Positions 6,781 through 23,269 are shown, numbered from the stretch's first letter. The stretch: 32,000 nucleotides of DNA from Chloroflexota bacterium (GCA_014360755.1 JACIWX010000001.1:640441-672440), one strand, 5' to 3'. Numbers and translations are program-made. The notes: generated by a model from the sequence alone, not told the origin.

Positions 6781-8054
6781 AAAGGATCCGCTTCCTGGAT
6801 TACTTCAACCTAAGTGTCTATTGGTTCGCCCTCTCTTACCTGTGGAACAGCATGGGACCTATCATCTTGCCCAATCTCATTGCCCCGCCGATGGTAGACG
6901 AGGCGATCAAGGGCTCAGCCTTGGGGTTGCTCAGCGCCGCTGGCCTGATTATTGCCATCATCGTACAACCGGTAGCTGGATTCATCAGCGACCGCAGCAC
7001 CTCTCGCTTTGGCCGCCGGCGTCCTTACCTCTTGGTCGGCACGCTTTTTGACCTGATCTTCCTGCTGGGCATTGCGCTCTCTACAAAATACTGGTTCTTA
7101 TTCCTCAGTTACATCCTGCTGCAGGTCTCATCCAATGTAGCACATGGTCCATACCAGGGCCTTATCCCGGATTTGGTTCCCGAAGAACGCCGTGGTACCG
7201 CCTCAGGCGTCAAGCAATTTGCTGAGATCGTGGGCATCATTGTTACTTCGCTAGCCACTGCAGCATTGATGGCTAAGGGTCAGACCCTGCTGGCGATTGG
7301 CGTCATCATGGCTGTGCTCACCGTAACGATGCTTATCACGGTCATCGGGGTGCGCGAGGAGCCGCTCCGGGATGCGCCAAAGCAGTCATTGCGCGAAACG
7401 ATGCTGGACACCTTCAAGGTAGATCCCCGCAGATACCCCGATTACTTTTGGCTGCTCCTATCGCGCTTGTTCGTCGTCATGGGCATGAATTTGGTGCGCA
7501 ACTATGTGCTCTATTTTGTCGCTGATGTGGTGATTGGACCAGAAGTGCCCTATGCGGAACGCCTGGCGCAAGCCAATAACCTGAGCGGCAGTCTATTAGC
7601 CATCATTGCCGTCGCTATTGCCATGACTGCACTGCCCACTGGCGTGCTTTCTGATCGCCTGGGCAAAAAGCTGCTGGTGCTCCTTTCCAGCATCCTGGGA
7701 GCATTGGGCGCCTTTCTTATGGTCTTTGCCAACGGTCGCACCCTCTTCACGCTTGGGGGCTTCCCCCTCATGGACATCCTTATCTTCGGCAGCCTCATTG
7801 GCTTGTCCGCCGGCATCTTTCTCAGTGCAAACTGGGCATTGGCTACAGACCTTATTCCGAAAGAAGAGGGAGGACGCTATCTGGGCATCTCTAACTTAGC
7901 CACAGCCGGGGCAGGGGTGCTCGCCGGCATTGGTGGGCCGATCCGTGATTTTCTAGGGTATACGGCGCTGTTTTTGAGCGCCTGTCTGTGTTACGTGTTG
8001 GGTACCCTGTTACTGGCAAAGGTGCACGAACACCCCAGTTCCACAAAGGCATAA
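6777..8054 (+). CDS. MFS-type transporter (GPH-like)
   Basis: The ORF opens at 6699. The ATG at 6777 has AGGAGG (6761-6766) upstream and an ATGA overlap with the upstream stop. The product has about 12 hydrophobic helices and the SDRSTSRFGRRRPYLL loop motif typical of MFS/GPH carriers. Confidence 0.8.
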   Translation: MKRIRFLDYFNLSVYWFALSYLWNSMGPIILPNLIAPPMVDEAIKGSALGLLSAAGLIIAIIVQPVAGFISDRSTSRFGRRRPYLLVGTLFDLIFLLGIALSTKYWFLFLSYILLQVSSNVAHGPYQGLIPDLVPEERRGTASGVKQFAEIVGIIVTSLATAALMAKGQTLLAIGVIMAVLTVTMLITVIGVREEPLRDAPKQSLRETMLDTFKVDPRRYPDYFWLLLSRLFVVMGMNLVRNYVLYFVADVVIGPEVPYAERLAQANNLSGSLLAIIAVAIAMTALPTGVLSDRLGKKLLVLLSSILGALGAFLMVFANGRTLFTLGGFPLMDILIFGSLIGLSAGIFLSANWALATDLIPKEEGGRYLGISNLATAGAGVLAGIGGPIRDFLGYTALFLSACLCYVLGTLLLAKVHEHPSSTKA

Positions 8055-8102
8055 GGACTGATATAGGCATTGTTGATATGCAGCTTGCCTACCAGGGTCA
8101 GC

Positions 8103-10295
8103 TCAGTTAGGACGCTCCAGCACCCAGCTATATTCGTAACCAGCTACCAGTAGCTCCTTGCCCGCAAAAGCAATTGGCCCTGGTATGTTGGCACTGGCAT
8201 AGACCGTATAGACCCCAGGCTCCAACTCCTTCGACCAAACCGTACCTGGCGCCAGAATAGTTGACTCGTCACCAAAAGAAAGCGTCATCGGACCCTGTAG
8301 GTTGTTCGTAATGTGCGCAATAGACTTGTCTTCAGCAGTTGCCGACCTTAACTGAGGCCGTGGCAGCGCCAGCTCCGTACCAGGTTTGGGTAATGGTGTG
8401 GGCTGAAGCTGCACTTCGACCTGGTGCAAGGAAAGTTGGTAAATCTTGCGATCGCCCTGGAAGAGCAACCACAAGTAGCCCTGCTCGTCAAAAGTCAAAG
8501 TTGGGTAGTATGGGAAGGTTCCGACACTCAGCTTGCCTGAACGCAGCAAGCTGCCGTCAAAACCAAATCGGTACCAGTCACCAAAGATGCCTATCACCCA
8601 CAGTCCGTCAGGAGCCCAGGCCAGAGCTTCGAGTCCACCCCAGATGGGAGCATGGAAAGTCTGGAGTAGTTCGCCATCTGCGCTAAACTTTAACAGAAAC
8701 TCGTCTCTATACTCCCACATCGTGCCGTCAGCCCCGCTCCATGTTTGATCTCCCTTCCAAGGAAGGCGCTGAGTAAATGAGTCCAGCACTGTACCCATAG
8801 CGTTCAAATGCACAATCAATGGATTATGTGGAGGGTCGCTCAATACCAGGCGCAATGCTGCACCATCCCAGGCCATACTCAAGACGCTAGTGGTGAAGGT
8901 GATTGGAAAAGAAGCCAGTGGCATGCCGAAGCGGTCCAATTGGTATAACACACGCTGCTTTCCGTCAATCACCCACAAGGTATCTCCAGCCACCGCCAAC
9001 GCGACAGGAGAAGGGCCAGGGGAGAAGAACTCGCCAACAAGGGCATCGGGAACAAAAATGAGCTGGCCAGTACCTGTCACAGCAGGTGAAGCACTGGGGG
9101 CAAGCAGCGTTTGTCGTGGTGTAGCGGTATTAATGGGAAGCGGCGAGCGAGATGGGGTAATTGTCCTTGAAATAGGTTCAGGTGGATGGGTTAGCGTGGC
9201 TTTTCCAGCGGGCACCATAGCAATACCGGTCAAAGTCGGGCCGAAAGGTGTGCTGCTAAGCGAGAGCGTCGTAGGAGATGGGGTCAGCGGTAGCCCGGGA
9301 AAAATCGCGGAGGATAGTATTCGCACCATCAGCAGCACCAGGGCGACCAGAGCCACTGCTGCCAGGCCTCCCCATAACCATTTCGGTAAAGGGGAGCGTC
9401 GTCCCACCCCACGTAGTTTAATGGCCTTGGCCAGCAAACTGGCAGCATCTTTATAAGCTTCGTCCTGATCAACGACCAATTCTCTCAATAACCTTATGGC
9501 TCGCTCGTAATCCTTCCTGACCAGGGCTGCTTTTCCCTCGGCATATGTGCGCGCCATCCGTTGCAACTTCTCAACCTGTTGCAGCTCCGCTTGGGCCGCT
9601 TCTCGATCTTCCGGCCCTAGTGCCAGGTACTCGCGCAAGGCCGACAGAGCCTCGTTCCACTCCTCCGCCTGGGTCAGGCTCCCGGCGCGGTCCCGCAACG
9701 CCTTCAGGCGGCTCTCCCGCTGTCGCTGCTGGATCTCCAGTAGTTCCCTTTGGATTGCGGCGTCACCGGGCACCAGGGCAAGGTATTCATTTAGCGCTGC
9801 CGTGGCCCTATCCCAGTCCCCTGCCTCTGTTGCCTGATTGGCCCGTCTCAGGATGGCTTCCAGCCGTTGCTCCTGCTCTCGGGCCGGGGCTTCGGCGACC
9901 AGCAAGGCCTGCACCCTGTCACCAAGCTTCTGCAGATGCTTCTCCAGCGGCGGCGTTAGCGCGTCCAGCCAATGGATCGCCTTGATGTAATACCCCATCT
10001 CCTTGGATGGTGGTACATCTTCGATGCGGAACGGAATGATGGGAATGCCCTTGTCCACTGCTTCTCCCACTTCGCGCAGCACTTGTGATGACTCGTTTGC
10101 GCCGTCGGAGAAAACCAGGACAAAGACACGGCTTTGGCCAATGGCATCAATCAAAACCCCCACCCAACTCTCACCAGGCAGCACATCCCGTGGGGCGATC
10201 CAGCAGCGCATCTTGCGGCTTTCCAGAGTAGCACACACCGCGTCCGCGACCACTTTATCCCGAGCCGAGTAGCTGATGAACACGTCATGAGCCAT
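8103..10295 (-). CDS. TIR domain protein: N-terminal TIR, three TPR-like helical repeats, one TM helix, P/S/T linker, C-terminal beta-propeller-like region and terminal beta-rich domain
   Basis: ATG at 10295 with AGGAGG 8 nt upstream (the ORF opens at GTG 10304). TIR blocks are DVFISYSARDK, CWIAPRDV, VFVLVFSDGANESSQVLREVGEA and IPIIPF. The hydrophobic helix is WLWGGLAAVALVALVLLMVRIL (about 9315-9380). The C-terminal half repeats motifs such as GDTLWVIDG...LYQLD, MAWDGAAL, WAPDGLWVIG and QGYLWLLFQG...IYQL. Confidence 0.8.
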   Translation of the reverse strand: MAHDVFISYSARDKVVADAVCATLESRKMRCWIAPRDVLPGESWVGVLIDAIGQSRVFVLVFSDGANESSQVLREVGEAVDKGIPIIPFRIEDVPPSKEMGYYIKAIHWLDALTPPLEKHLQKLGDRVQALLVAEAPAREQEQRLEAILRRANQATEAGDWDRATAALNEYLALVPGDAAIQRELLEIQQRQRESRLKALRDRAGSLTQAEEWNEALSALREYLALGPEDREAAQAELQQVEKLQRMARTYAEGKAALVRKDYERAIRLLRELVVDQDEAYKDAASLLAKAIKLRGVGRRSPLPKWLWGGLAAVALVALVLLMVRILSSAIFPGLPLTPSPTTLSLSSTPFGPTLTGIAMVPAGKATLTHPPEPISRTITPSRSPLPINTATPRQTLLAPSASPAVTGTGQLIFVPDALVGEFFSPGPSPVALAVAGDTLWVIDGKQRVLYQLDRFGMPLASFPITFTTSVLSMAWDGAALRLVLSDPPHNPLIVHLNAMGTVLDSFTQRLPWKGDQTWSGADGTMWEYRDEFLLKFSADGELLQTFHAPIWGGLEALAWAPDGLWVIGIFGDWYRFGFDGSLLRSGKLSVGTFPYYPTLTFDEQGYLWLLFQGDRKIYQLSLHQVEVQLQPTPLPKPGTELALPRPQLRSATAEDKSIAHITNNLQGPMTLSFGDESTILAPGTVWSKELEPGVYTVYASANIPGPIAFAGKELLVAGYEYSWVLERPN

Positions 10296-10337
10296 GTCCT
10301 TCACCTCCTATGTTTGCCACATACTTTGAGGCCAACT

Positions 10338-10393
10338 CTAGTGATGTTATCATTTGATAGAACCATACCACCCTAGTGACATTATCATTTGAT
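10338..10393. repeat. Two 21-bp direct repeats (19/21 identical), 35 bp apart, in the intergenic region upstream of the 8103-10295 TIR gene; possible operator
   Basis: The copies are CTAGTGATGTTATCATTTGAT (10338-10358) and CTAGTGACATTATCATTTGAT (10373-10393). Each contains the short inverted repeat ATCA-TT-TGAT. They lie 43-98 nt upstream of the start codon at 10295. Confidence 0.6.
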
Positions 10394-10415
10394 TTGGAGC
10401 GGCTCGACTGGGTGG

Positions 10416-13091
10416 TCACCATTTAGCCACCTCTCCCTGCAGCTTGACAATGGCATAGCCCGCCCTGGCCACAATTTCCGGGATGGCGCGTACCAATGCG
10501 CGATCTTTCTCTTTCTCGTCTTCGGGAAGAGGTTCGTCACCAATTGCTACCGCCACAGCGGGCTCGAGCGCTGCTCGTTCTGCGGCAGATAATCGTCGCC
10601 AAGGCAGTATCGCTGGGTTGATTTTCTCCGCATCATTGCGCTGGGGACCATAGCGCCAACCGGCAGCAATCTTGGCACGCAACCAGCGCTCGTGCTCCAT
10701 TTCCGCCAATTTCTCCAGATCTGCTTCGGAAAAGGCAAATGTTGCCATGCTGCCGCGCACTGGAATCATGACACAACCAATGAAAGCTAACTTGCGCATA
10801 ATGTCCAACACATTGTCGCGGTTCTGCTGCTTGAGATGCTGAGGCAACTGCTCATACGGCATGGATGCTGCTTCAGGTGCGCCTGGCTTGCCCTCTTGGC
10901 TCGCACTATAGACCTCGTGCACGGCCGCCGCCAGCCTTTCCAGCAATTCACCGCTCAATTCAGGTTGTTGCACGAGTGCCAGAAATTCCAACCCGTTCAC
11001 GTGCAGGTTTAACTGTGCCTCAGAGGGCAGGCAGGAGCGCTCAAAGCGGCTTTTGCCCGCCAACATGCTCATGGCAATGATAGATTCCATAGAGCGTACC
11101 CCGTGTTTGTAGCTGCTGATGTGCAAAAAAGCGCGCAGAACACCAGGGTCTATGTTCAGTTTTCCCTTGCCATTCGGTTCTGTGAATAGATAATGGGCAT
11201 TCAGTGCGAACAGGCTGCGCAGCAGAATCGCCCGTCGGATCAGGAAGTAGGGATCGCCAGCAGGATACTTGACGTCCAATGGATTGGGCCCCATGATGTT
11301 TACATACCCTTTCAAGCGGCTCAAAAAATCTGGCCCCTTGGCATCCTTCGCACGCATCGCCACTTGGGCAAACTCCTCCATGCTGGTAGACGTGCCCCCT
11401 GCGAAGACAAAGATGGCTTGGCCAATGGGATGAGTAACCTGCCCCTCCTGAAAAGAGCCATCCTGCATGGGCGAGAGGAAATAACGCAGCCAGCCAAGCG
11501 CCTGTCCATCCAGTTGGCTGTCAAACTCGTCCCAGAATACCAGTGGCATCTTGCCCGACAAGCCCAAATCCCTTACCTGATGCAGGGCGCCAATCAACTC
11601 ATCTGGTGTGCGGAACTGGGATAGGTTAAAGGTGCGCACCTCAATGGCCTGTGGGTCATCGGGCCGGATAGACCTAGCTACCTGTTCCACGCCAAACGAT
11701 TTGCCCGAGCCCGGTGGCCCAAAGACAGCGATGGATATAGGGCGTTTTTGTGGCCGGCTGCAATACTCAGCAAGAACCGCGCGGATGCTGCGATAGCTCT
11801 CAATCTCACGCCGATCCAGGGTCAAGAGTTTGCCAAATTGCCCTAGTGGCACCCCCTGCAAAGCAGCTTCAACACCCTCTTCAACTACTTTGCGTGCCAC
11901 TTCGTCCAGGTTCTCTGGATAGCGCTCCTGTAAAATAGTCCAGAATGGTGTCACTAACCCAGTGCCACTCCCACGCTTTTCCACCAGGAACGAGATAGGA
12001 TTCGGTACCCTGACAGATGCCAGGAGTGGCTCTTCCTCTCCATCCATCAGCCTGGCCGCCACTGCATCTATCGGGAACGCCAGCCGGCAGGCATCTCGAG
12101 CGGAGCCTGGTCCGAGGTAGCCGCCCTGGTGTAAGAGGCGCATTGCAGCGACCCCGTTCTGGATGCCTTGTGTTAGGTCAGGTTGGGCCGGGTTACGCAG
12201 GATCTGCCAGGCAATAGCCGCTGTGAGGCAGGTAGTATAACCAACAACCCGTCCTGGGTATTGGAGATTCCAACCACCCTCAGTGAACCTGGGGTCAAAG
12301 AACAACGTGCATTCGAGTTCGCCTTGCTGACACGAGAGCAGCAACGCTCCTGCCGTATCGAAGGAAATAACAACATGCGCACAATCCGATAGGTCGCTTA
12401 CATGCGGGTTGTTCGTCAGTTCCCAGAACAGGTCCTGGGCTGTGCGTTCCCAAGACAATTCACGGCTAATCTGCACCTGCGTCAGGCGCAGGTCATCAAT
12501 CGTCATCACCATGATCAAACGCTGGGCACAGGTCTTGTGCAAGTGTTCCCACAGTGGCCCGCGAGCCACGGGGCGAGCCATTTTGACCAGAACCCACCCT
12601 TGACAGTTGCCTTGCGCCACGGCACGCGGCCACAGCTCAGGCCAATGGCGAAAGCCCAGATCCGCATCGTCCAGCACAACTAACATGGGATCCGACGGGT
12701 CATTGCGCACTTTCTGCCATGAAGCAGGTTCTGCCATTGGGCTGGGGTCTAATCCCAGATGGTCTTTTACACGCCAAGCCATCTCTTGGCTTTTCCCGCC
12801 CTTGAACTGATCCCATAGCGCATAGGAATGATGGAAGCGCTCGTCGCCAGGATGCATAGGTTCCCGAGGAGCATCCATTTGGCGTACAATATAGCCCGAT
12901 TGTTTTGCAACCACATGAATGAGATCAGCGAGCATCGCTGCCCCACCGCGATGCCAGCAAGCCTTGGTACGGTCGCCAGCCCACCATGCACGCAAGGGTG
13001 TATCGTTCCTAGCACTGCGAAAGCGTGCCAAATTCCAATCCATGGTCACGTCACCTGTGACGACGACCTCTTTACCTATTGTATTGTTCAT
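10416..13091 (-). CDS. Multidomain ATPase: N-terminal ribokinase/PfkB-like domain, central classical AAA+ ATPase, C-terminal tandem RyR-type repeats
   Basis: ATG at 13091 preceded by AGGAGGA (the ORF opens at 13163). The N-terminal PfkB-like pattern is VVVTGDVTMDWNL, GGAAMLADLI, LVVLDDADLG and VVISFDTAGALLL, but no GAGD anion-hole motif is present (VGYTTCLTAAIA). Walker A is VFGPPGSGKS (about 11700-11723) and Walker B is LVFWDEFD. The RyR repeat is EHERWLRAKIAAGWRYGP...ILPW...EDEKEKDRALVRAIPEIVARAGYAIVKL. Confidence 0.75.
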   Translation of the reverse strand: MNNTIGKEVVVTGDVTMDWNLARFRSARNDTPLRAWWAGDRTKACWHRGGAAMLADLIHVVAKQSGYIVRQMDAPREPMHPGDERFHHSYALWDQFKGGKSQEMAWRVKDHLGLDPSPMAEPASWQKVRNDPSDPMLVVLDDADLGFRHWPELWPRAVAQGNCQGWVLVKMARPVARGPLWEHLHKTCAQRLIMVMTIDDLRLTQVQISRELSWERTAQDLFWELTNNPHVSDLSDCAHVVISFDTAGALLLSCQQGELECTLFFDPRFTEGGWNLQYPGRVVGYTTCLTAAIAWQILRNPAQPDLTQGIQNGVAAMRLLHQGGYLGPGSARDACRLAFPIDAVAARLMDGEEEPLLASVRVPNPISFLVEKRGSGTGLVTPFWTILQERYPENLDEVARKVVEEGVEAALQGVPLGQFGKLLTLDRREIESYRSIRAVLAEYCSRPQKRPISIAVFGPPGSGKSFGVEQVARSIRPDDPQAIEVRTFNLSQFRTPDELIGALHQVRDLGLSGKMPLVFWDEFDSQLDGQALGWLRYFLSPMQDGSFQEGQVTHPIGQAIFVFAGGTSTSMEEFAQVAMRAKDAKGPDFLSRLKGYVNIMGPNPLDVKYPAGDPYFLIRRAILLRSLFALNAHYLFTEPNGKGKLNIDPGVLRAFLHISSYKHGVRSMESIIAMSMLAGKSRFERSCLPSEAQLNLHVNGLEFLALVQQPELSGELLERLAAAVHEVYSASQEGKPGAPEAASMPYEQLPQHLKQQNRDNVLDIMRKLAFIGCVMIPVRGSMATFAFSEADLEKLAEMEHERWLRAKIAAGWRYGPQRNDAEKINPAILPWRRLSAAERAALEPAVAVAIGDEPLPEDEKEKDRALVRAIPEIVARAGYAIVKLQGEVAKW

Positions 13092-13176
13092 TATTCCTCC
13101 TAATGATCTTGCGAAGCTCCTGCAAGCCATCGAGTGAGCAAGGGGTATGGTTCCCCGACACAAGCTATCCCCTTGA

Positions 13177-14373
13177 TCACTCGTATATCCCCGCCTCGAG
13201 CACGCTTACCCCTTCCATATCCAACAAAGTGTCCCGTCGGCTGATCTCTCCCCGGACGAGAACCCACAAAGTGTGCCGTTTGTCCGCAATGTCCACACCG
13301 ACAGGCAAGGCAGCCTTAATCTGCTGGATAAGAGGAGAACGAGTGGCTGCCAGGCACGCTGCACCAGTGCCCAGGCTATGTGGCCCAGCGAGAACCATCA
13401 CAAGGCGGCCGGGATAATCGGGATGTGGCCCACGGACAATAATCCCGTGATCCATAACGTGGATAAGAGCCCCTTCCGTGCCTAGATACTCAGTCCTGCC
13501 TTCCACCAAGTCCACCTGACCATTCTTCGTGCGGTAGAGAGCAGTCAGGTAGTCTCCTTCCTCCTTTTCGCCGGGAAATGCCCCCAGAGTCCAATTGGGT
13601 TCGCGACCCTTTTGCAAACGTTGCAACATTTCTCGGACGGGTGGATTGCTCTTTGGAGAGCCAATCAGGTAGAGGTTTAACGGTCGGCTCAGCAGGTCTG
13701 GTGGGCTATATTGTCCTGAGACCAATTCCACGCCTCTGCCCTCGCCCATGATACATCCAAAAGCGGAGATGAGGCCAAGCACTCCCAGATTGTCGCCAAA
13801 CGTCCGTTGGTCATAGGCTTGAGCGCGAATGCGGCTGTCCTTGCCAGGGTATCTGGGGCTGGCGACGATGTAGGCTGGTGTGGGTATGTCCGCTTCCAGC
13901 ATGTCCCGCAGCAAAGCAATCTGCGCATTCACACGCGAACGAAGGTGATCTGCCAGGCGTTTGTCAAAGACCTCCATTGCTTCCCGGCTGCCACTATAGG
14001 AAATTACTTCCCTTCCCTTCAGATCGGTAGGCACGTCAACGCCTTCCTCGACGAGCAGCAACAACGGTTTCTGTACACCTACTGCATAGCCCACCTCGTA
14101 GAATACATTGGCGCTCGGGGTGCTGATTTCAGCAATCACCAGTTCTGCCCTCTCGATCAGCAAATGGATCTTGGCCAGTAAATCGTGGCCAGCACCATGC
14201 ACATCGTCAGCACGAATAGCCGCAAGCCCCACCGCCTGACGCACCACTTCGCGGATGTGCACGAAAAAGTCCCATCGGGATTTATATGGCATCACCACGA
14301 AGACATAGGGCTTGCCCTGGGTAAGCTCTTCAACGATATGCCCAAGGGCATACGATGAACTCTCTTTCCTCAT
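13177..14373 (-). CDS. Nucleoside 2-deoxyribosyltransferase/TIR-like N-terminal domain fused to an uncharacterised ~235-aa C-terminal domain
   Basis: ATG at 14373 with AAGGAGGG 8 nt upstream. The N-terminal pattern is YVFVVMPYKSRWDFF...IRADDV...LIERAELVIAEISTPSANVFYEVGYAVGVQKPLLLLV. It resembles the NDT-type D/E-x-G-T-x-x-E-x-G-Y-A block with a conserved Glu. I recognised nothing in the C-terminal domain. Confidence 0.6.
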   Translation of the reverse strand: MRKESSSYALGHIVEELTQGKPYVFVVMPYKSRWDFFVHIREVVRQAVGLAAIRADDVHGAGHDLLAKIHLLIERAELVIAEISTPSANVFYEVGYAVGVQKPLLLLVEEGVDVPTDLKGREVISYSGSREAMEVFDKRLADHLRSRVNAQIALLRDMLEADIPTPAYIVASPRYPGKDSRIRAQAYDQRTFGDNLGVLGLISAFGCIMGEGRGVELVSGQYSPPDLLSRPLNLYLIGSPKSNPPVREMLQRLQKGREPNWTLGAFPGEKEEGDYLTALYRTKNGQVDLVEGRTEYLGTEGALIHVMDHGIIVRGPHPDYPGRLVMVLAGPHSLGTGAACLAATRSPLIQQIKAALPVGVDIADKRHTLWVLVRGEISRRDTLLDMEGVSVLEAGIYE

Positions 14374-14416
14374 GACCACTTCCCTCCTTATAGGGAGTGC
14401 CTCTAATATAGTTCCA

Positions 14417-17317
14417 CTACGAAGCCGAAGCGGATGGATTGCAAAGGTCTGTCAGATTCGGGCATGTGGACTGGCACGGTTCGTCCTCTAGGAACTGCCG
14501 CCATTCCTTCGGGGTGAGGTTGCGATTGGCGATGCGACAGGCGCGAGCCCGCCACGAATCTAGACTGGCATCCCAGAGGATGATAGTGCCATCTAGGCTG
14601 CCAGATAACAAAGTACCGCCGTCCGGACTAAAAACCACGCTGTCCACCGCAGACCTGTGGCCAATGAGCGGCTTGCCTATGGCATGACCGCTTTTCACAT
14701 CCCATAGGATAATGGAGTTGTCCTCTGTGGGCGGAGACACTCGGCCGCTGCCAGATGCCAATATTCGCCCATCAGGACTGAAAGCAATGCTCTGCACTCC
14801 TACACTATGGCCTTTGAGCGGGGAAAAGAGGGGTTGACCGGTCGTGACATCCCACAGGATAACGGTGGAATCCTCTCCGCCTGATGCTAGGATATGGCTA
14901 TCTGGGCTGAAAGCGACGCTGTTCACCCAGAAAGCATGCCCACGCCATGGTTGGCCACATGGCATCCGTGTAGCGACATCCCAAAGGATGACCGTTCTAT
15001 CCATGCTACAGGAAGCCAACATCTTCCCATCTGGGCTGAATGCCACACTCTGCACCTCTGCACTGTGACCGGTTAATGGCTCGCCCAGTGGTCGATGCGC
15101 GGAGACATCCCAGAGGATAATGGTTTTATCCGCACTAGAGGAAGCCAATATCTTTCCATCCGGGCTGAAAGCAACACCCATAACCGATCGCGTATGCCCT
15201 GTCAAGGGTTCGCCAATGGCTTGCTGGGTCATCACATCCCACAGCATGACGGTATTGTCCTCGCTGCCAGACGCTAACGTCTGACCATCCGGACTGAAAG
15301 CAAGGCTGGTTATGAAAGACCTGTGTCCCTTCAACGGCTGGCCAATGGGCTGCCCTGTCTTGGCGTCCCATAGGATGATGGCGTTGTCCCTTCTGCCTGA
15401 GGCGAACACTTTGCCATGTGGGCTAAAAGCCAGGCTCCCAGTATAACCTGTCTCGTTGATGACAAGCTGGGCCAGCGGTTGGGACACCGTTTGCTGAGTA
15501 TTCCACAACATGATCAGAGTCCCACTGCCAGCGACCAAGGTTGCTCCATCTGAACTGAAAGCTAAGGACGGCACTCCTTCGGCGTGCCCGGTCGCTAGTG
15601 TGCCCAACGACTGATGTGTCTGCGCATCCCACAGAGTTACCGTGCCATGTCCACTACCTGATGCCAACACTCTTCCGCTGGGATTGAAAGCCAGGCTGAA
15701 TACCCCAGCGTCGCGACCAGTGAGAGGAATCTCCCCTATTGCTCCCCCGGCTGAGACGTCCCATATCATAATGGCATCATCGGCATCCCCGCCCGACAAG
15801 AGTGTTTTCCCATCTGGGCTGAAGGCAAGGCTAGTCACATAATGGCTGTGCCCTTCCAGGCGTGGCATCAGCGGTTTGAGGGTGGCAACATTCCAAAGAA
15901 CAATGGTGCGATAGGCACCTGCTGCCAATATGCGCCCATCGGGGCTGAAAGCGACCTCCTGTACCATTCCCCAGTGAGGTCCGAGTGGCTGACCAAGTGG
16001 TTCTCCTGTTGCCACGTCCCATAGAATCACAGTCTGGTCATCGCTGCCGGACGCCAACATCTTCCCATCCGGACTGAACGCGACACAGAGCACATGGTGC
16101 TGATGCCCTTTGAGAGGAGCAAGCACAGGCAAGCCAGTGGCTACATTCCACAGGATGATGGAGCCATCGGAACTGCCGGACGCCAGCATCTGTCCATCCG
16201 GGCTAAAAGCCACGCTGTTCACCGTGCCAGTATGTCCGGTGAGATGCCGTCCACCGGATTCAGGGTGCGTCGTATCCCAGAGCATAACGCTGCCATCTGC
16301 ACTGCCTGAGGCCAGCGTGTTCCCCTTTGGACTGAAAGCCACGCTGAACACGGAAGAGGTGTGGCCATGGAGAAAAGCAGTGAGATTGGGGCTGTGTTCT
16401 AACGCATCGAGCAGGCTAGCTCTGGCTTCTACAGTATCTGCGATGCGGCTGGCCTCAACAGCCAATAGCAGCGCCAAGTCAAGCTGATCGGAAAGGTGAG
16501 TCTGCGCCTGCGCTGCCAATTGGCGGGACAAAGCGATACGGCGTTGTTGCTCTGCGTTATCTCTCTGCGCGATTGCTTCTGCTTGAGCCGTAGCGCGCAC
16601 CCTAGCTTCCTCAACCGCAATGGCTTTCGCCTCTAGTGCTTCATTGCGTTGACCCCAGGCAACCAATGCCAAAACAGCAGTCACTACCAAGCCCAACGTA
16701 ACCGCTGCAAGCGTGGCTCTTTGCCGGTTTATTGCTGCCTTGCGACTGGCAAGGATGTACTCCACCTGCAGTGGAGTGGGTGTAGGTTCCTTTGTCGCAC
16801 TTTTGCCCAACCATTCCTCTGCCTCCTGGAGATCCCTGCCGCGTAGCGCAAAACTGTTGTCCCGTCCCTTGCTATCCCACTCTGTAGCACGCACGAGGAA
16901 CCGAGTATGTGCACGCACCCAGTCGAGATCCGTTTGAATGGCTTGCACCAACTTATCGAAAGACTGCTGGAAATCATCCTGCTCGCGGAAGAATATCCAA
17001 TGGAGCGAGGCAATCTCAGGAGGCAGGTCTCTAGGATCAAGATCGTGCAGCAGCACCGGTACCAATCGCTTGTGGTTTCCGAGGCCGTGCTCGATTTCCT
17101 TGCGACAGACCTCTGATTGGACCGATGTCTGGCTGACAATAAACACCAGTGTATCGGCCCCTTCGATGGCGCGATATACCTCAGACTGCCAGTCTGCACT
17201 AGGGGGAATATCCTCCCAGTCAACCCATATCTCTAGATCCCTGGCACGCAGGGCATCGTAGAGCACACGCGCAAAAGCAATATCCTTCCGTGAGTAAGAG
17301 ATAAAGACGTCTGACAT
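14417..17317 (-). CDS. TIR-WD40 protein: N-terminal TIR, one hydrophobic helix, coiled coil, 14 WD40 repeats
   Basis: ATG at 17317 with AGGAGA 6 nt upstream. TIR blocks are DVFISYSRKD, IWVDWEDI, LVFIVSQTSVQSEVCRKEIEH and LVPVLL. The hydrophobic helix is LAAVTLGLVVTAVLALVAW. There are 14 units of about 42 aa with the pattern L-x-GH-x-x-x-V-x-S-VAFSPDG-x-x-LASGS-x-D-x-T-(V/I)-ILWD. The C-terminal tail (ACRIANRNLTPKEWRQFL...TCP) is typical of bacterial WD40 arrays. Confidence 0.9.
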   Translation of the reverse strand: MSDVFISYSRKDIAFARVLYDALRARDLEIWVDWEDIPPSADWQSEVYRAIEGADTLVFIVSQTSVQSEVCRKEIEHGLGNHKRLVPVLLHDLDPRDLPPEIASLHWIFFREQDDFQQSFDKLVQAIQTDLDWVRAHTRFLVRATEWDSKGRDNSFALRGRDLQEAEEWLGKSATKEPTPTPLQVEYILASRKAAINRQRATLAAVTLGLVVTAVLALVAWGQRNEALEAKAIAVEEARVRATAQAEAIAQRDNAEQQRRIALSRQLAAQAQTHLSDQLDLALLLAVEASRIADTVEARASLLDALEHSPNLTAFLHGHTSSVFSVAFSPKGNTLASGSADGSVMLWDTTHPESGGRHLTGHTGTVNSVAFSPDGQMLASGSSDGSIILWNVATGLPVLAPLKGHQHHVLCVAFSPDGKMLASGSDDQTVILWDVATGEPLGQPLGPHWGMVQEVAFSPDGRILAAGAYRTIVLWNVATLKPLMPRLEGHSHYVTSLAFSPDGKTLLSGGDADDAIMIWDVSAGGAIGEIPLTGRDAGVFSLAFNPSGRVLASGSGHGTVTLWDAQTHQSLGTLATGHAEGVPSLAFSSDGATLVAGSGTLIMLWNTQQTVSQPLAQLVINETGYTGSLAFSPHGKVFASGRRDNAIILWDAKTGQPIGQPLKGHRSFITSLAFSPDGQTLASGSEDNTVMLWDVMTQQAIGEPLTGHTRSVMGVAFSPDGKILASSSADKTIILWDVSAHRPLGEPLTGHSAEVQSVAFSPDGKMLASCSMDRTVILWDVATRMPCGQPWRGHAFWVNSVAFSPDSHILASGGEDSTVILWDVTTGQPLFSPLKGHSVGVQSIAFSPDGRILASGSGRVSPPTEDNSIILWDVKSGHAIGKPLIGHRSAVDSVVFSPDGGTLLSGSLDGTIILWDASLDSWRARACRIANRNLTPKEWRQFLEDEPCQSTCPNLTDLCNPSASAS
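14542..16381 (-). repeat. Tandem array of 14 WD40-coding units of about 126 bp (intragenic repeat)
   Basis: There is periodic protein-level repetition (VAFSPDGKMLASGS...TVILWDVATG occurs nearly verbatim several times). The many spurious plus-strand ORFs of similar sequence across this interval reflect the underlying DNA periodicity. Confidence 0.8.
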
Positions 17318-17437
17318 TTGCTGTCTCCTAACTAAGAAGCATTTAACGACTTATAGAAGTGCCTTCACACTTGGCACAAGGTGCATTCCAATCCATCGCC
17401 ACGTCTTCTGCATTGTGTTCCCTCCAATAAGAAAGCC

Positions 17438-17752
17438 TCAGCGTCCCAACTTCTGACGCAATTGCTGGTAGTACTGCTCATCCGCTGGAGACACATACAT
17501 ACCAGCCCGCTTCATCTCCGAAAAGATGTCATACGCGCGCTGCCACCACTCAAGGGCTGTGGGGTCGCCCAAACGCTCCAGCGCATCGGCGATCCAGCAG
17601 CAAGCAACCCACAGATCGCGCTGCCAGCCGGCGTTGGATGGGTCCAACACCGCTAAGCGCTCACGGATCGCCAGACTCTCCCGATATTCTCTCAGTACAC
17701 CTGTCAAGTCTCCCTGCGCCTGCAGCACACTGGCAACCCTGTCGTGGCTCAC
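17438..17752 (-). CDS. Small TPR-like protein (104 aa); possibly an adaptor or a remnant of a longer TPR protein
   Basis: The GTG start lies 7 nt after the stop of the upstream RyR gene. The sequence VLQAQGDLTGVLREYRESLAIRERLAVLDPSNAGWQRDLWV matches the about 40-aa unit common in bacterial TPR arrays (GDLxGALxxYxxSLAIxExLAxxDPxNxxWQRDL). It is followed by a C-terminal cap. Confidence 0.55.
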   Translation of the reverse strand: MSHDRVASVLQAQGDLTGVLREYRESLAIRERLAVLDPSNAGWQRDLWVACCWIADALERLGDPTALEWWQRAYDIFSEMKRAGMYVSPADEQYYQQLRQKLGR

Positions 17753-17759
17753 GGATAGA

Positions 17760-19553
17760 TCATGCTACCATCCGGCGTTGGTAGGGCAGCCGGTACACCT
17801 GCAACCCTGCCCGTGCGAGGAAGCGCGGCAACTCGCGCACTACGTTGCGATCCTTTTCCTTCTCCGCTTCGGGCAGTTCGTCCCAGGGAACCAGGATAGG
17901 GCTGGTCTTTCGTTCCATGTCTTTGGGACCTGGGGCATAGCTCCAGCCTGCGCGTAACCGCTCTTCCACAAAGCGCTGATGTTCCATTTGTGCCATCTTC
18001 TCGACTTCCTCTGCCGTGAACTCGAACCGTTCCGCATCCCAGTCAGTCAACGGTGCTATACCATAGCCTACTGCCTTTAATTTCACCAAAATATGATCCG
18101 CTTGACACCGGTTCGATTCTTTGATCTCCTCCGGCAATTCCTCCCAACATACCAAGGAAGGATTCGTCGCTGGTGTTTCACCTAACCCTTGCTGGTGCCG
18201 CACATAGCTCTCATGAATAGCACGTGCCAACACCTCATGGGTGCCGCCGAGAATCAGTTCAGGACTACAAGTACGATCTAGCAATCCAAAGGCATAGGGG
18301 TTGTCAAAACCATCTCCTTCCGCGCTACGCAGGAGCAGCGCCAACCCCGTCTCGTGAGCCATGCGCACCACAATAGGAATTCTTTGCCCTCTTAAACGCT
18401 GCAGTAACGTCAAGCCTGTCTTTAAGCCAAGGGCATCGTTGTCCAGGCATACATATACCGCTGTTACATCGCAGTGCCCATCAGAGCCGAGCAGAAAACC
18501 CGCTTGCTCAAACTCTGGCCAGAGGATATCCATTTGCAGGACAGCCAGTTGGCAGGCTTTCTCCAATTTCGGATAACGTAGGCAGAGCGACGCTACTTTG
18601 CGCTTTGCTTCTCGATCGATGATGCTGATCCGCAGGGAACCATAAGTTTGCGTATAGTTGGTCCACCAACTCCTTGCCATATGGACTACCAGGCTCTCCC
18701 CCATGCGCCCCAAGCCAACAATGAGCACATGAGGTTGTTGCATCAATACACCGTCTTCCTCATGGAAGCACGGATGTTCTTCCAACAAGAGCCGGGCTCC
18801 ACGGTCAAAGATATTGAACAGTTCCAACCGATATGAAGGGACTGGTGACACTTCGCGCTCACGGAGCAGGTGGTATAGCCGCGCATCCACAATGTGCACA
18901 AAGCAAGTCAATGGACGCCCTTGGCGCGAAGCAACCAGCTCTCGGACGTGCACAGCAACCTCGGCATTGGTGCTGTCATCCCCACAGACGGAGAACACGT
19001 ATTTCGCCCTCGGAACCCCTGCCCGACACAGAACCCCTCGATCCTTAGCATTCCCCAGGGTCACGATGATACCTTCTTCCTGACACAATGTGATGAAATC
19101 GTTGTTCTCATCCTGCTCGATAACGACCACGCGCTCTCCCTGCTGGAGGAACCCCCGCGCTAAGAGCAATCCCATGCGACCTAACCCACAGATCACCACA
19201 TGATCGCGGATGAAACGCAAGCGCAACAATTGCACTTGCTCATAAAAGATCGTTACAAAAGTCTGTATAACCGTATAAGCAGCTACAGCCGGTGCCAACA
19301 ATCGTGCCGCTTGCAACTCCCAGCCTATAGGCGGAGGAACTGCTCCAGATTGCAGGGGAAAAAGCTGCAAAGTGAGGTAGAAAAGATCCCAGAACGAGCG
19401 ATTCTCGTTTAGCGCAGCAAAATGCTTGGCAAATCCAACATACCCCAGGTACAACGTGGTTAGCCACAGCCCAATAATCAAAACCCCTCGGTACTGAGAC
19501 CAATTACGCCAAACAGTTTGGCGCCAGGCTCTATTGGCTACTCTTTTCATCAT
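17760..19553 (-). CDS. 2TM pore-like membrane domain + two Rossmann (TrkA-N/RCK-like) domains + C-terminal tandem RyR-type repeats
   Basis: The start at 19553 is 9 nt after the upstream stop. The membrane layout is TM1 GVLIIGLWLTTLYLGYVGFA, a pore-helix-like segment SFWDLFYLTLQLFPLQSG and TM2 LLAPAVAAYTVIQTFVTIF. The TrkA-N domain reads VVICGLGRMGLLLARGF..VVVIEQDE..GNAKD..GDDSTN. A second GxGxxG is VLIVGLGRMG. The RyR repeats are AIHESY...WEELPEEIKESNR and MEHQRFVEERLRAGWSYAP...LVPWDELPEAEKEKDRNVVRELPRFLARAGLQVYRL. Confidence 0.75.
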   Translation of the reverse strand: MMKRVANRAWRQTVWRNWSQYRGVLIIGLWLTTLYLGYVGFAKHFAALNENRSFWDLFYLTLQLFPLQSGAVPPPIGWELQAARLLAPAVAAYTVIQTFVTIFYEQVQLLRLRFIRDHVVICGLGRMGLLLARGFLQQGERVVVIEQDENNDFITLCQEEGIIVTLGNAKDRGVLCRAGVPRAKYVFSVCGDDSTNAEVAVHVRELVASRQGRPLTCFVHIVDARLYHLLREREVSPVPSYRLELFNIFDRGARLLLEEHPCFHEEDGVLMQQPHVLIVGLGRMGESLVVHMARSWWTNYTQTYGSLRISIIDREAKRKVASLCLRYPKLEKACQLAVLQMDILWPEFEQAGFLLGSDGHCDVTAVYVCLDNDALGLKTGLTLLQRLRGQRIPIVVRMAHETGLALLLRSAEGDGFDNPYAFGLLDRTCSPELILGGTHEVLARAIHESYVRHQQGLGETPATNPSLVCWEELPEEIKESNRCQADHILVKLKAVGYGIAPLTDWDAERFEFTAEEVEKMAQMEHQRFVEERLRAGWSYAPGPKDMERKTSPILVPWDELPEAEKEKDRNVVRELPRFLARAGLQVYRLPYQRRMVA

Positions 19554-19562
19554 CTCAATTCT

Positions 19563-21068
19563 TCAGTGGCAAATTTGTGGGTCTACCCGATATAGCTTGT
19601 TCGTTTCGTTGTGGATCACCCACAGAAAACGCCCATCCCATGCCAGTCCTTTCCATGCCCACCAAACTGGCGCCGAAGGGAGATCAATCCTGCAAACACC
19701 TTGCATGGCTTGATTCACCTTCGTCAAATGATTGTCAACTAGCACCCAAAGATGTGTTCCGTCCCATACCAACCCAGATGCTCGGCTAGAAGGAAATATC
19801 CCAAAGTCCATAGCATAAGAATCCAACGTCTTTATCTCATTGCCCATCGGCCCAAGCTTGTATATCGCGCCCTCTGAAGAAGTCACCCACAAGTATTGTC
19901 CATCCCACGCAATATTTGTCGGACTGCCAAGGAAATCTTTCGGCATTTCGAAAAGAGTGGTTGTGGCGCCGGTTTGATCCTTAAGGCTAATGCCTTGATC
20001 ATCCAAAGCCCAAAACTGCTTTCGTGATTCATCCCAAGCCAACTCTCCCGGCGGCCAAAGGCATTCTTGCTCAGAAATGCGAAAACGGCTTTCCTCTTCT
20101 ACCAGTTCTAGCCTTACCTGCCCAGAAACAAATCGCACACACAAAGCCGAACCATCATAGATAACGCGAACGGGGTCATTGAGAGGCAACCTGTACGCCT
20201 TTATTGCCTCTGGTGTAGCCATGCCCACTGGCGTAGCCGTATAAATGGGGGCTGCAATAGGCATAACTGTCAATGTAGGAATCCGTGTGAAAGCACGAGT
20301 AGGACCTGCAGTTACTGTAGCAACAGGGGTAAAGGTAGCCATTTTCATCGCCGTAGGACTGTGCTTGGGAACCGATGTCGGTGAAGACACACTTGTAGCC
20401 GCCGTAGGGGAATACGTAGCTAGATTGGGGCTGGTCATCGCAGTAGATAATTGGAGCAATTTCCATGCTAGAAACACGATGACAGTGCCTTGAACCGTAA
20501 ATGCTACCGCTGCAATCCAGAACCATTTATGCTGCCACGGCGGCTTGGCTTCTTTATGTGGCACAACTGTTATCTCAGGTTGCCTTGCTCTAGGCAATGC
20601 GCTTAATTTCACCCCACCTGGCTCGGGCTCTCGGCTCTCACCCTTGCCCTGCGCCTCAATACCAAGGGCGTGCAAACCGCTGATGATGCGGGGAATAATT
20701 GGGGCAATTCCTTCAGGGGGAATGGTGATGGAAGAGGCGCTGCCCACCGCTTGCCGCCATAATGGCTGACGAATCTGAAACTGGCTATGGGTTACCTGGC
20801 TGAGCACAGGAATAAAAGGTTTGCCAGCTTCGTGAGCACGTACTACCTCACTGCTCACCTGGTTGGAGCCAAGCGAATGCACCGAGATAATGAGCACAAC
20901 AGCATGGGATTGTTCGATCGCTTGTCCTGTTTGCACGAGATAGGAGAGACCAGGGACACTATCCCGCTCATAGTACCAAACAGTATACCCAACTGCCTCC
21001 AGGCCTTGCGCAATCTCCAATGCAACTTGAGCATCTTCTTCCACATGGCTGATAAAAATATCGGCCAT
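19563..21068 (-). CDS. TIR domain protein: N-terminal TIR, one TM helix, S/T/P-rich linker, C-terminal beta-propeller-like domain
   Basis: ATG at 21068 with GAAGGAG 6 nt upstream (the ORF opens at 21104). TIR blocks are DIFISHVEEDAQVA, VWYYERD, AVVLIISVHSLGSNQVSSEVVRA and PFIPVL. The TM helix is WFWIAAVAFTVQGTVIVFLAWKLL. C-terminal repeats are IAWDGQYLWVTSSEGAIYKL, LVWDGTHLWVLVDNHLTKV and LAWDGRFLWVIHNETNKLYRV. Confidence 0.8.
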   Translation of the reverse strand: MADIFISHVEEDAQVALEIAQGLEAVGYTVWYYERDSVPGLSYLVQTGQAIEQSHAVVLIISVHSLGSNQVSSEVVRAHEAGKPFIPVLSQVTHSQFQIRQPLWRQAVGSASSITIPPEGIAPIIPRIISGLHALGIEAQGKGESREPEPGGVKLSALPRARQPEITVVPHKEAKPPWQHKWFWIAAVAFTVQGTVIVFLAWKLLQLSTAMTSPNLATYSPTAATSVSSPTSVPKHSPTAMKMATFTPVATVTAGPTRAFTRIPTLTVMPIAAPIYTATPVGMATPEAIKAYRLPLNDPVRVIYDGSALCVRFVSGQVRLELVEEESRFRISEQECLWPPGELAWDESRKQFWALDDQGISLKDQTGATTTLFEMPKDFLGSPTNIAWDGQYLWVTSSEGAIYKLGPMGNEIKTLDSYAMDFGIFPSSRASGLVWDGTHLWVLVDNHLTKVNQAMQGVCRIDLPSAPVWWAWKGLAWDGRFLWVIHNETNKLYRVDPQICH

Positions 21069-21241
21069 TGGCAGCTCCTTCTGTACCATTTTGGGTACTG
21101 ACAACCACAGCTAAAGGGGACGCAAAAGTATCACTGTTTTGAACTAGATACATCTATACAGGTATGTCAACTTGTTGTAGTATACAACCAAAAACCGGAT
21201 TGAGCAAGAGTTCTATACAAGTATCTAATTCAATCTATTTG

Positions 21242-21253
21242 TAGTAGTAGTAG
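21242..21253 (+). repeat. TAGTAGTAGTAG trinucleotide tract (DnaA-trio-like)
   Basis: Four perfect tandem TAG units sit at the edge of the AT-rich stretch inside the putative origin. Confidence 0.4.
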
Positions 21254-21395
21254 GATGGGTTGAAAAGGGGGAAAAAGTTTCCTAGGTACTAGGTTTTTTC
21301 TTATTAGAGCACAATTCGTAGGGCGTGCTGTGAAAAGTACTACCATAGATAGGGAAGCAAGTAATGGAGCAGAAGAGCGGTTTGTGCACAGGCAT

Positions 21396-21404
21396 TGTGG
21401 ATAA
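21396..21404 (-). promoter_or_regulatory. DnaA box, perfect consensus (TGTGGATAA on the plus strand)
   Basis: Exact 9/9 match to TTATCCACA on the minus strand. Confidence 0.7.
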
Positions 21405-21568
21405 ATACAGGACAATGTTTAATAGCGTGAAAAACGTATTGATCATGAAATGAGACGCTAGAAATTGAGGGGGGTGTGATATTGTACCCTATAGTTAGGA
21501 GCACACTGCATGGGGAAGGACAAGACAAAAACATTCCAGAGGTGGATTTATCCCCAGACAGGGGATAG

Positions 21569-21577
21569 TTATCCACA
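21569..21577 (+). promoter_or_regulatory. DnaA box, perfect consensus TTATCCACA
   Basis: Exact 9-mer, 21 bp from the next box in the same orientation, just past the dnaA stop codon. Confidence 0.7.
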
Positions 21578-21589
21578 ATAATTAGGCAC

Positions 21590-21598
21590 TTATCCACA
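21590..21598 (+). promoter_or_regulatory. DnaA box, perfect consensus TTATCCACA
   Basis: Exact 9-mer, 10 nt from the dnaA stop codon. Confidence 0.7.
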
Positions 21599-21607
21599 GA
21601 TTGATAG

Positions 21608-23017: not shown

Positions 23018-23269
23018 GTCAAGTCTCCCTGGAAATATCTGCATTTTAATATATTGACAACATGACCAGAGATTCAGAGTTCGCAAAGAATGCCCGTCAA
23101 GTGGTGACAGGGAAAAGAGCAAAAGAGGAACATATTTGCTCTACAAAGACGTCATTATTTGTGAAGGTCACAAAACCAGAGGAGATTTTCCCCCGCTGCA
23201 CTGGGGATTATTGTAGCCGATAGGCTTCTTTTTGGCAATCACGGGCAAGTCGCTACGGGTGCTGTATCT

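Follow-up and report, generated by a model that had tools for sequence, protein, structure and literature searches.

We analysed a window of 32,000 nucleotides, the window being the whole stretch of DNA under study, taken from a Chloroflexota metagenome-assembled genome (MAG; GCA_014360755.1 JACIWX010000001.1:640441-672440). Between positions 8103 and 21068 it carries a minus-strand cluster encoding three TIR proteins, an ATPase and a putative pore protein that both end in tandem RyR domains, and a protein of the TIR/nucleoside deoxyribosyltransferase (NDT) fold. Judging from sequences and predicted structures, we read this cluster as a modular, Thoeris-like TIR signalling system, in which an ADP-ribose (ADPR)-type signal made by the TIR domains would be received by the RyR domains of the pore and of the ATPase, and we give this reading a probability of roughly 0.5. 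Signalling by NAD-derived nucleotides, already proposed in a first-pass annotation of the same DNA, is still the best reading of the locus. Across genomes the conserved unit is modular, consisting of the ATPase (hereafter the hub), variable TIR sensors and often a protein combining RCK and RyR domains (hereafter RCK-RyR), and all the main components found in the window accompany the hub in other loci as well.

Gene organisation of the cluster

The cluster is formed by seven minus-strand open reading frames (ORFs), located at 19563-21068, 17760-19553, 17438-17752, 14417-17317, 13177-14373, 10416-13091 and 8103-10295. The intergenic gaps deduced from these coordinates are 9, 7, 120, 43, 85 and 120 nt, and no long opposite-strand gene was found within the run in the ORF listing. 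An identical metagenome contig, found in a public sequencing run through Logan, has independent gene calls of 501, 596, 96, 966, 398, 891 and 730 amino acids. The first-pass annotation had described seven closely spaced and co-oriented genes; the ORF listing agrees with this description and the start codons match the gene calls on the identical contig. All the motifs that it quoted (DIFISHVEED, DVFISYSRKD, DVFISYSARD, SNQVSSEV, SEVCRKEI, SSQVLREV and NVFYEVGYA) are likewise present in the translations.

Conservation of the association across genomes

Relatives of the hub were searched for in the GTDB one-genome-per-species collection, resulting in 377 stretches with a confirmed relative. From these, 80 loci were kept with flanks of 10 kb (numbered loci are given below as L001, L002, etc.), and the neighbourhood statistics were calculated on the 76 species-representative loci with a complete hub ORF. 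Among the 140 immediate neighbours of the hub, TIR_2 is the commonest Pfam family (18 neighbours), while TrkA_N, DUF4062 and ThsB_TIR occur 6 times each. The 458 ORFs lying within 4 kb of the hub were then compared with the 421 ORFs lying at 4-10 kb by a Fisher test on approximate counts. TIR genes were counted 31 times in the near zone versus 6 in the far zone (p=7e-5), SLOG-like genes 28 versus 2 times (p=1e-6), RCK genes 16 versus 2 times (p=1e-3) and DUF4062 genes 23 versus 8 times (p=0.016). Taken together, the four classes give 98 versus 18 occurrences (p=1e-14), and 53 of the 76 hub loci exhibit at least one of them within 4 kb. Full-length RCK-RyR genes stand alongside the hub in 14 to 16 loci. 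This neighbourhood comparison, which the first-pass annotation had suggested, was thus run and revealed an association beyond chance, found across phyla and dependent on distance.

Locus L001, with a hub 76% identical to that of the window, has the cluster at the same site beside dnaA. RCK-RyR, the TIR-WD40 gene, the gene of the 398-residue protein and the hub are kept there, whereas the TIR sensor genes differ. Because an effector set retained while the TIR genes vary is the pattern of Thoeris, we call the layout Thoeris-like. The same kinds of genes co-occur in searches begun independently from the RCK-RyR and the 398-residue families. RCK-RyR members adjoin a TIR gene and a hub gene (L091), a SLATT gene (L094) or a small upstream gene (L093), and members of the 398-residue family lie near RyR, TIR, TIR-NACHT and SLATT genes in 2 of 3 long contigs (L087 and L089). 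SLOG-like proteins, some of them fused to SLATT, and SLATT genes adjoin both RCK-RyR and the hub; such partners would suit the proposed signalling as well.

The 104-residue ORF (17438..17752, minus strand) shows only a sub-threshold TPR similarity in Pfam, is absent from the syntenic L001 and has a single weak tblastn match among 86 loci. Its membership of the system is doubtful and it is possibly a gene remnant. Of the seven-gene system announced in the first-pass annotation, the functional linkage of the genes is upheld, but the unit is not the set of seven, this ORF not being conserved.

Tandem RyR domains and their putative ligand-contact residues

The RyR domains were detected by Pfam with scores of 62.9 and 56.9 bits (cut-off 27.4), with two repeats in each of the two proteins. 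In the hub, the tandem is Repeat12-like and extends over 10437..10949 (minus strand), where it is the proposed receptor of an ADPR-type ligand; in RCK-RyR it extends over 17784..18236 (minus strand). A profile of the hub family matched two RyR repeats in the PDB, with the Repeat12 region of RyR2 detected at E=3e-22. In agreement with this, the tail of the AlphaFold2 model of the hub was matched by Foldseek to Repeat12 structures of RyR3 with ATP or AMP-PCP (PDB 6uhh and 9ls7). The tail of RCK-RyR was matched by phmmer to a Bacteroides (Bt)/human RyR chimera (1.5e-21) and also to the Repeat12 region of RyR1. That two otherwise unrelated proteins end in the same tandem RyR, as seen at first pass, is consequently supported by Pfam, by the profile search in the PDB and by phmmer.

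Phage proteins of the same family, PF02026, cleave 2'cADPR and 3'cADPR, two forms of cyclic ADP-ribose (cADPR), or bind them at nanomolar affinity (PMC13232231; bioRxiv 10.64898/2026.05.28.727677, May 2026). The phage protein RyDEP is a glycosidase with a His/Asp dyad, its ligand contacts are His75, Trp78, His100 and Asp117, and the Repeat12 of human RyR3 holds adenine nucleotides in the same pocket (PMC13232231). Among eight phage RyDEP homologues chosen for testing, 6 bound the signals and cleavage was obtained only with DyoEdafos RyDEP itself (PMC13232231). That study does not deal with RyR domains encoded by hosts as parts of ATPases or channels.

The contact residues were mapped onto the two families through the Bacteroides RyR sequence, whose spacings of +3, +22 and +17 fit; the mapping rests on these spacings because no RyDEP structure was found in the PDB. 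In repeat 2 of the hub, the corresponding residues are H800, W803 and D863, with N825 at the position of the phosphate-contacting His; in repeat 2 of RCK-RyR they are H525, F528 and D568, with S551 at that position. The equivalent of His75 is His in 118 of the 118 hub homologues and in 115 of the 121 RCK-RyR homologues. That of Trp78 is Trp, Tyr or Phe in all 118 hub homologues and Trp or Phe in 120/121 RCK-RyR homologues, and that of Asp117 is Asp in 117/118 hub homologues and Asp (89) or Asn (25) in the 121 RCK-RyR sequences. The equivalent of His100 is more variable: His in 64 and Asn in 48 of the 118 hub homologues, and mostly Ser, Asn or His in RCK-RyR. Three of the four RyDEP contact positions (His, aromatic, Asp) are thus conserved here, binding having been shown for the phage homologues.

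Ligand reception had been attributed at first pass to the Rossmann folds of the RCK domains and to the PfkB fold. This attribution needs correction, the shared tandem RyR being the likelier and better-supported receiver because its phage homologues bind 2'cADPR and 3'cADPR at nanomolar affinity (PMC13232231).

Small stand-alone RyR ORFs of 94 to 133 residues were also observed by hub genes (L045:10007-10294, L069:9932-10216 and L078:6730-7107), as well as in L089:293-694. These host-encoded ORFs have the format of the phage RyDEP and may act as signal buffers or regulators.

The hub ATPase

The hub (10416..13091, minus strand) is a protein of 891 residues, composed of an N-terminal domain of ribokinase/PfkB fold (residues ~1-360), a probable AAA+ core and the C-terminal tandem RyR. 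Besides RyR (2.5e-15), Pfam yields weak AAA matches, with 19.7 bits for AAA against a cut-off of 21.2. Consistent with an AAA+ core, the Walker A (GPPGSGKS) and Walker B (VFWDEFD) motifs are invariant in 118/118 homologues. The AlphaFold2 model has a mean predicted local distance difference test (pLDDT) score of 73 and is poor at residues 532-613. When the ~360 N-terminal residues were compared to the PDB with Foldseek, pseudouridine kinase, HldA, nucleoside kinase and ribokinase were retrieved with E values of 4e-8 to 1e-5, and the GG dipeptide of this fold is invariant in the 118 homologues. Pfam gave no PF00294 (PfkB) match at E<=0.01. The earlier label of PfkB-like is thus correct at the level of the fold, from Foldseek on the AlphaFold2 model, but not at the level of the Pfam family.

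Among the candidates that were scored, at least 1510 are full-length matches of the hub family, most of which exceed 50% identity; they come from Chloroflexota, Acidobacteriota, Planctomycetota, Chlorobi, Firmicutes, Actinomycetota and archaea, and are known only as 'ATPase' or 'RyR domain-containing'. The family is unusually conserved: members from Chloroflexota, Acidobacteriota, Planctomycetota and archaea still exceed 50% identity to one another. Since its distribution is patchy across phyla and yet the identity exceeds 50%, horizontal spread is suggested. No relative of the hub was found in the IMG/VR scan.

The RCK-RyR protein

RCK-RyR (17760..19553, minus strand; 597 residues) comprises two transmembrane helices, predicted at residues 24-42 and 85-103, two Rossmann/RCK domains and the C-terminal tandem RyR. 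Pfam detects TrkA_N (3.5e-19; 69.7 bits against a cut-off of 23.8) and RyR (3.3e-17), and comparison to the PDB and NCBIfam indicates a resemblance of the RCK domain to TrkA, KefC and GsuK. In the 121 homologues both GxGxxG motifs are conserved, and the loop between the helices (D-x-x-Y-L-T-L-Q-L-F-x-L-E/Q-S-G, ending L-E/Q-S-G-A/S-V) is highly conserved. The architecture read at first pass, two transmembrane helices followed by Rossmann/RCK and RyR domains, is confirmed by transmembrane prediction, by the TrkA_N and RyR matches and by the two GxGxxG motifs. From these features we propose that the protein is a ligand-gated pore. The family has at least 1105 matches.

Putative TIR sensor proteins

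Three proteins of the cluster start with a TIR domain. The first (8103..10295, minus strand; 730 residues) lies directly downstream of the hub and contains the TIR domain (1-130), a TPR/coiled region, a transmembrane helix (314-332), a Pro/Ser/Thr-rich linker and C-terminal repeats; its Pfam matches are TIR_2 (1.2e-19) and TPR_14. In no fewer than 12 loci from other phyla (Firmicutes, Actinomycetota, Cloacimonadota and Ignavibacteriota), TIR domains encoded next to the hub share 41-68% identity with that of this protein. The second (14417..17317, minus strand; 966 residues) associates the TIR domain with a coiled region, a transmembrane helix (201-219) and an array of 14 WD40 repeats, the latter detected by Pfam at 3.9e-148 over 14 stretches; with PADLOC, it matches SAVED_TIR (1.8e-12) and ThsB (6.7e-9). 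In an Actinomycetota MAG (L041), the gene immediately upstream of the hub encodes a full-length homologue, 40% identical over 982 residues. The third (19563..21068, minus strand; 501 residues) comprises the TIR domain (1-130; TIR_2 2.1e-16), a linker, a transmembrane helix (183-201), a Ser/Thr/Pro-rich linker and C-terminal repeats with a recurring (A/V)WDG..LWV motif. Its counterpart in L001 is 43% identical and located at the same position.

The retention of the catalytic Glu noted at first pass extends well beyond the cluster, since this column is Glu in 49 of the 50 TIR domains of the window and of the hub-containing loci. Transmembrane prediction likewise agrees with the single hydrophobic helix noted in each TIR protein. 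For the repeat regions, described earlier as beta-propeller or WD40, the WD40 part holds for the 14417..17317 product, while a beta-propeller was not confirmed in the two others. The C-terminal regions of the latter are weakly paralogous (27% identity, E=2e-5), both contain internal repeats, and that of the 8103..10295 product gave a marginal PDB match (E=0.008) to a six-bladed propeller enzyme; a beta-propeller is plausible in both. In these two proteins the order of TIR domain, transmembrane helix, Ser/Thr/Pro-rich linker and repeats suggests an outward-facing sensor.

The topology of the two proteins (19563-20300 and 8103-9200) recalls that of Toll-like receptors, with the enzyme or adaptor domain inside and the repeat sensor outside.

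The 398-residue TIR/NDT-fold protein

The 398-residue protein (13177..14373, minus strand) is composed of an N-terminal domain (~20-160) of TIR/NDT N-glycosidase fold and a C-terminal alpha/beta domain (167-398). In its NVFYEVGYA block, N89, E93 and G95 do not vary among 24 sequences. Pfam scores are sub-threshold, with 20.8 bits for Nuc_deoxyrib_tr (cut-off 28.8) and 19.4 bits for CAP12-PCTIR_TIR (cut-off 24.7), and PADLOC assigns it to 'Effector TIR' at 1.8e-8. The AlphaFold2 model has a pLDDT of 84.6. In Foldseek, TIR-STING came first, and TM-scores of 0.7-0.78 to DNPH1 and 0.70-0.72 to the TIR domain of MyD88 were obtained. Alignment to a TIR profile with hhalign gave a probability of 94% (E=1.3e-7). 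The NDT-like character proposed for this protein is thus supported by the fold and by hhalign to TIR, but the Pfam scores remain below the cut-offs. The C-terminal domain exhibited no STING, SAVED or SLOG profile match, and hhalign against the SLOG-like family was negative. An enzyme domain with a C-terminal domain behind it is also the layout of TIR-STING, TIR-SAVED and CAP12 effectors, and the protein may for this reason serve as an output instead of making the signal. At least 272 full-length homologues were found.

Proposed mechanism and comparison with known systems

In the signalling scheme that we propose, a stimulus met by the repeat region would switch on the attached TIR domain, which would use NAD+ to make a messenger derived from ADP-ribose, be it an isomer of cADPR or a compound related to it. 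The messenger would bind the tandem RyR domains. Binding would open the RCK-RyR pore, leading to ion leak, growth arrest or cell death, and would also activate the hub ATPase against some target. The 398-residue protein would either act as an enzyme that processes the signal or provide one more output, by cleaving nucleotides. Defence or programmed cell death is the most likely biological role suggested by the gene content, and this is the least certain step of the scheme.

By its gene content, the cluster is predicted to work like Thoeris, yet it fits no type named in PADLOC or in the parts covered of a catalogue of 29 Thoeris types. As in Thoeris (types I-XI), TIR proteins with a catalytic Glu are found, several TIR genes accompany a conserved effector set, and the effectors would be activated by an ADPR-type molecule made by TIR. 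One hub-adjacent TIR of another locus fits the PADLOC ThsB model at 2e-51, and genes for SLOG and SLATT, which are Thoeris parts, occur in the same neighbourhoods. Unlike in Thoeris, no SIR2-SLOG, Macro, caspase-like, DUF2270, DUF6650, HIT or CMP-hydrolase effector is present here, the putative receiver being RyR, and the TIR proteins are large, membrane-anchored and multi-domain whereas ThsB is small. The view of the first-pass annotation that no named system fits is in line with the PADLOC run, which gave generic TIR matches only and none for the two RyR proteins. Similarly, RyR, TrkA and PF02026 are absent from the text of the Sorek-lab preprint on 29 Thoeris types and from its four supplements, two of these being covered in part. 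The type X 'ion channel' effector of that catalogue comes, in the parts covered, from two-gene operons of Bacillus and Vibrio. No paper linking host RyR-domain proteins to TIR genes was found in our literature search.

The 'ATPase' class of the Thoeris catalogue was considered as a possible equivalent of the hub and rejected, because its example (L098), a ParA-like plus nSTAND1 protein, lacks an RyR domain and does not resemble the hub.

The cluster shares features with other systems. Phage RyDEP belongs to the same Pfam family and its His, aromatic and Asp contacts are conserved here, but RyDEP is a small viral counter-defence protein, whereas the domain is here a C-terminal tandem repeat of large cellular proteins encoded beside TIR genes. 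The bacterial tandem repeats align to the Repeat12 of animal ryanodine receptors at E ~1e-18 to 1e-22 and one of their carriers is channel-like, but its module of two transmembrane helices plus RCK is unrelated to the six-transmembrane RyR pore. RCK-gated K+ channels and transporters (MthK/GsuK/Kch, TrkA, KefC) likewise have TrkA_N/RCK domains and two transmembrane helices around a conserved loop; RCK-RyR differs from them by the lack of a TVGYG-type filter and by the extra tandem RyR. Finally, the N-terminal domain of the 398-residue protein resembles TIR-STING, TIR-SAVED, the CAP12/Pycsar TIR effectors and DNPH1/NDT in its TIR/NDT fold and conserved Glu block, followed by a second domain. 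In contrast with CBASS and Pycsar, no CD-NTase or pyrimidine cyclase is encoded among the ORFs of the window.

A bolder extension, which we regard as rather doubtful at this stage, is that RyR domains of the Repeat12 type form a third major class of cellular receptors for TIR-made ADPR messengers, beside SLOG and Macro. Bacteria would then possess an RyR-bearing ion channel gated by a TIR enzyme, a parallel to, and perhaps the ancestor of, the long-debated link between cADPR and the ryanodine receptor in animals, with the widespread ribokinase-fold AAA+ ATPase as a second output. If the proposed signalling system is correct, TIR immune signalling would be extended by a receptor domain and two effector types that are new to it, an RyR-gated pore and an RyR-regulated AAA+ ATPase. 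The phage RyR-domain proteins would be explained, as they may have been borrowed from host receptors. A simple bacterial system would also become available for testing the sensing of cADPR-type molecules by Repeat12, which is still debated for animal ryanodine receptors. Moreover, three large unannotated families (1500+, 1100+ and 270+ matches), currently labelled 'ATPase', 'NAD-binding protein' and 'hypothetical', would be given a context.

Weighing of the alternatives

Several observations weigh against the reading of the cluster as a Thoeris-like signalling system. In the hub, no recognisable toxic domain was found, and the ribokinase-fold domain seems to be devoid of its catalytic Asp: the motif is DTAGALL where DTxGAGD is expected, a correspondence judged by eye on a tentative alignment, and the Asp position is hydrophobic in 118/118 homologues. 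RCK-RyR has no TVGYG filter and no Ion_trans_2 match, and its membrane part shows no similarity to solved channels in the PDB, the RCK domain alone being matched. The phosphate-contacting His is replaced by Asn in the ATPase of the window and by Ser in its RCK protein. The cluster is not a classical defence island because it is flanked by housekeeping genes and stands beside dnaA. A promoter and terminator scan of 7900-21700 gave counts no higher than in shuffled sequences, so that no operon boundaries were drawn. As for the comparison loci, their ORFs were called by a longest-ORF rule, which makes the counts approximate, and 23 of the 76 hub loci have none of the four partner classes within 4 kb. 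Finally, TIR cannot be the sole source of signal, given that at many hub loci the partner is SLOG-like and TIR is missing.

Some of these points would suit a scheme in which the RyR domains buffer or hydrolyse ADPR-type products in the manner of RyDEP, the TIR proteins being self-contained units made of a sensor and an NAD+-depleting effector. RyR would then set thresholds, reset the system or recycle NAD+, while the ribosyl product would be handled by the domains of ribokinase fold and AAA+ type. TIR domains fused to WD40, TPR or STAND are commonly read as effector heads of nucleoside triphosphate (NTP)-dependent conflict systems, as this scheme supposes. It would also account for the hub ATPase being without an obvious toxic domain, for the ribokinase fold, which suggests the handling of ribose compounds, for the stand-alone RyR ORFs found by the hub and for the conservation of both residues of the RyDEP His/Asp dyad. 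Against the dyad argument, 6 of the eight phage homologues bound the signals and none but DyoEdafos RyDEP itself cleaved them (PMC13232231). The kinase argument is countered by the hydrophobic residue at the canonical Asp position of all the hub homologues. Furthermore, RyR is the only module common to two different proteins of output type, which is the usual sign of a common input domain, and a channel-like fusion is hard to square with signal clean-up. We consequently hold this scheme to be unlikely.

The same chemistry could serve the physiological or developmental signalling of filamentous, multicellular-type bacteria instead of immunity, with membrane TIR receptors sensing external or cell-cell cues and tuning the ion flux through RCK-RyR. 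The outward-facing sensor order of two TIR proteins would fit such a function, and K+ transport is the normal target of RCK regulation. The fixed site beside dnaA in two related genomes with housekeeping flanks, the lack of mobile-element genes and that of IMG/VR matches point in the same direction. In other phyla, however, the hub is surrounded by toxin-antitoxin, NACHT/STAND, DUF4062, SLATT and ThsB-like genes, which is the content of conflict islands. Moreover, the TIR sensor genes turn over between close relatives, and the patchy distribution at more than 50% identity suggests horizontal spread. A purely physiological role is for us improbable.

Lastly, although Chloroflexota and similar bacteria are rich in TIR and WD40 genes and the 104-residue TPR ORF is not conserved, the idea that abundant TIR/WD40 paralogues lie by chance beside unrelated transport and ATPase genes was rejected as extremely improbable, since it is contradicted by the near/far counts, which depend on the distance from the hub and span phyla, by the families of the immediate neighbours, by the syntenic core of the relative whose hub is 76% identical and by the same gene kinds appearing in the independent searches seeded with RCK-RyR and the 398-residue protein.

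Surroundings of the cluster and additional partners of the hub

The cluster is bordered by an MFS transporter gene on one side and by dnaA on the other, and the other genes of the window encode transport proteins, hydrolases and glycosidases. Within the window ORFs, no ThsA, CD-NTase, Argonaute or NACHT was detected by Pfam, PADLOC or ORF annotation, in accordance with the absence of such partners reported at first pass. The dnaA gene (21608-23122, minus strand) directly adjoins the cluster and the GC skew changes sign near 21-22 kb; for these two reasons, a replication origin is probably close. Upstream of the cluster, among transport genes, a protein of unknown function with DUF7309 and DUF6930 domains is encoded at 2985-4013 (plus strand), and the identical Logan contig has it in the same position.

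Immediately beside the hub, the commonest partner, absent from the window, is a SLOG-like family of ~170-230 residues with the motifs GHR..(A/S)EGADR..WDG..GGTG, present in 24 of the 76 loci. It is encoded directly downstream of hub homologues in L013:12614-13195, L033:12670-13224 and ~20 other loci, and some members, such as L036:12599-14329, are longer and include a SLATT-like membrane domain. The family had no Pfam match at E<=0.01 and none in NCBIfam, and its best PDB match (GAPDH, E=0.04) is not credible. The SLOG-like label is tentative because it relies on weak, consistent matches to YAcAr, DprA and YpsA of the SLOG clan. Comparisons by hhalign of DUF4062 with TIR, and of the SLOG-like family with TIR or NDT, were all negative.

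DUF4062-NACHT/STAND proteins with TPR or WD40 arrays were observed within 4 kb of the hub in 19 of the 76 loci (L012:3565-6600, L007:13227-17624 and others), which suggests a further, TIR-independent class of sensors in the same network. Toxin-antitoxin pairs (RelE/HTH; ParE/PhD), absent from the window, lie directly by RyR-ATPase or 398-residue protein genes in L004:9227-9942, L005 and L006 (Acidobacteriota) and in L087:11240-11754; such pairs are typical company of conflict islands.

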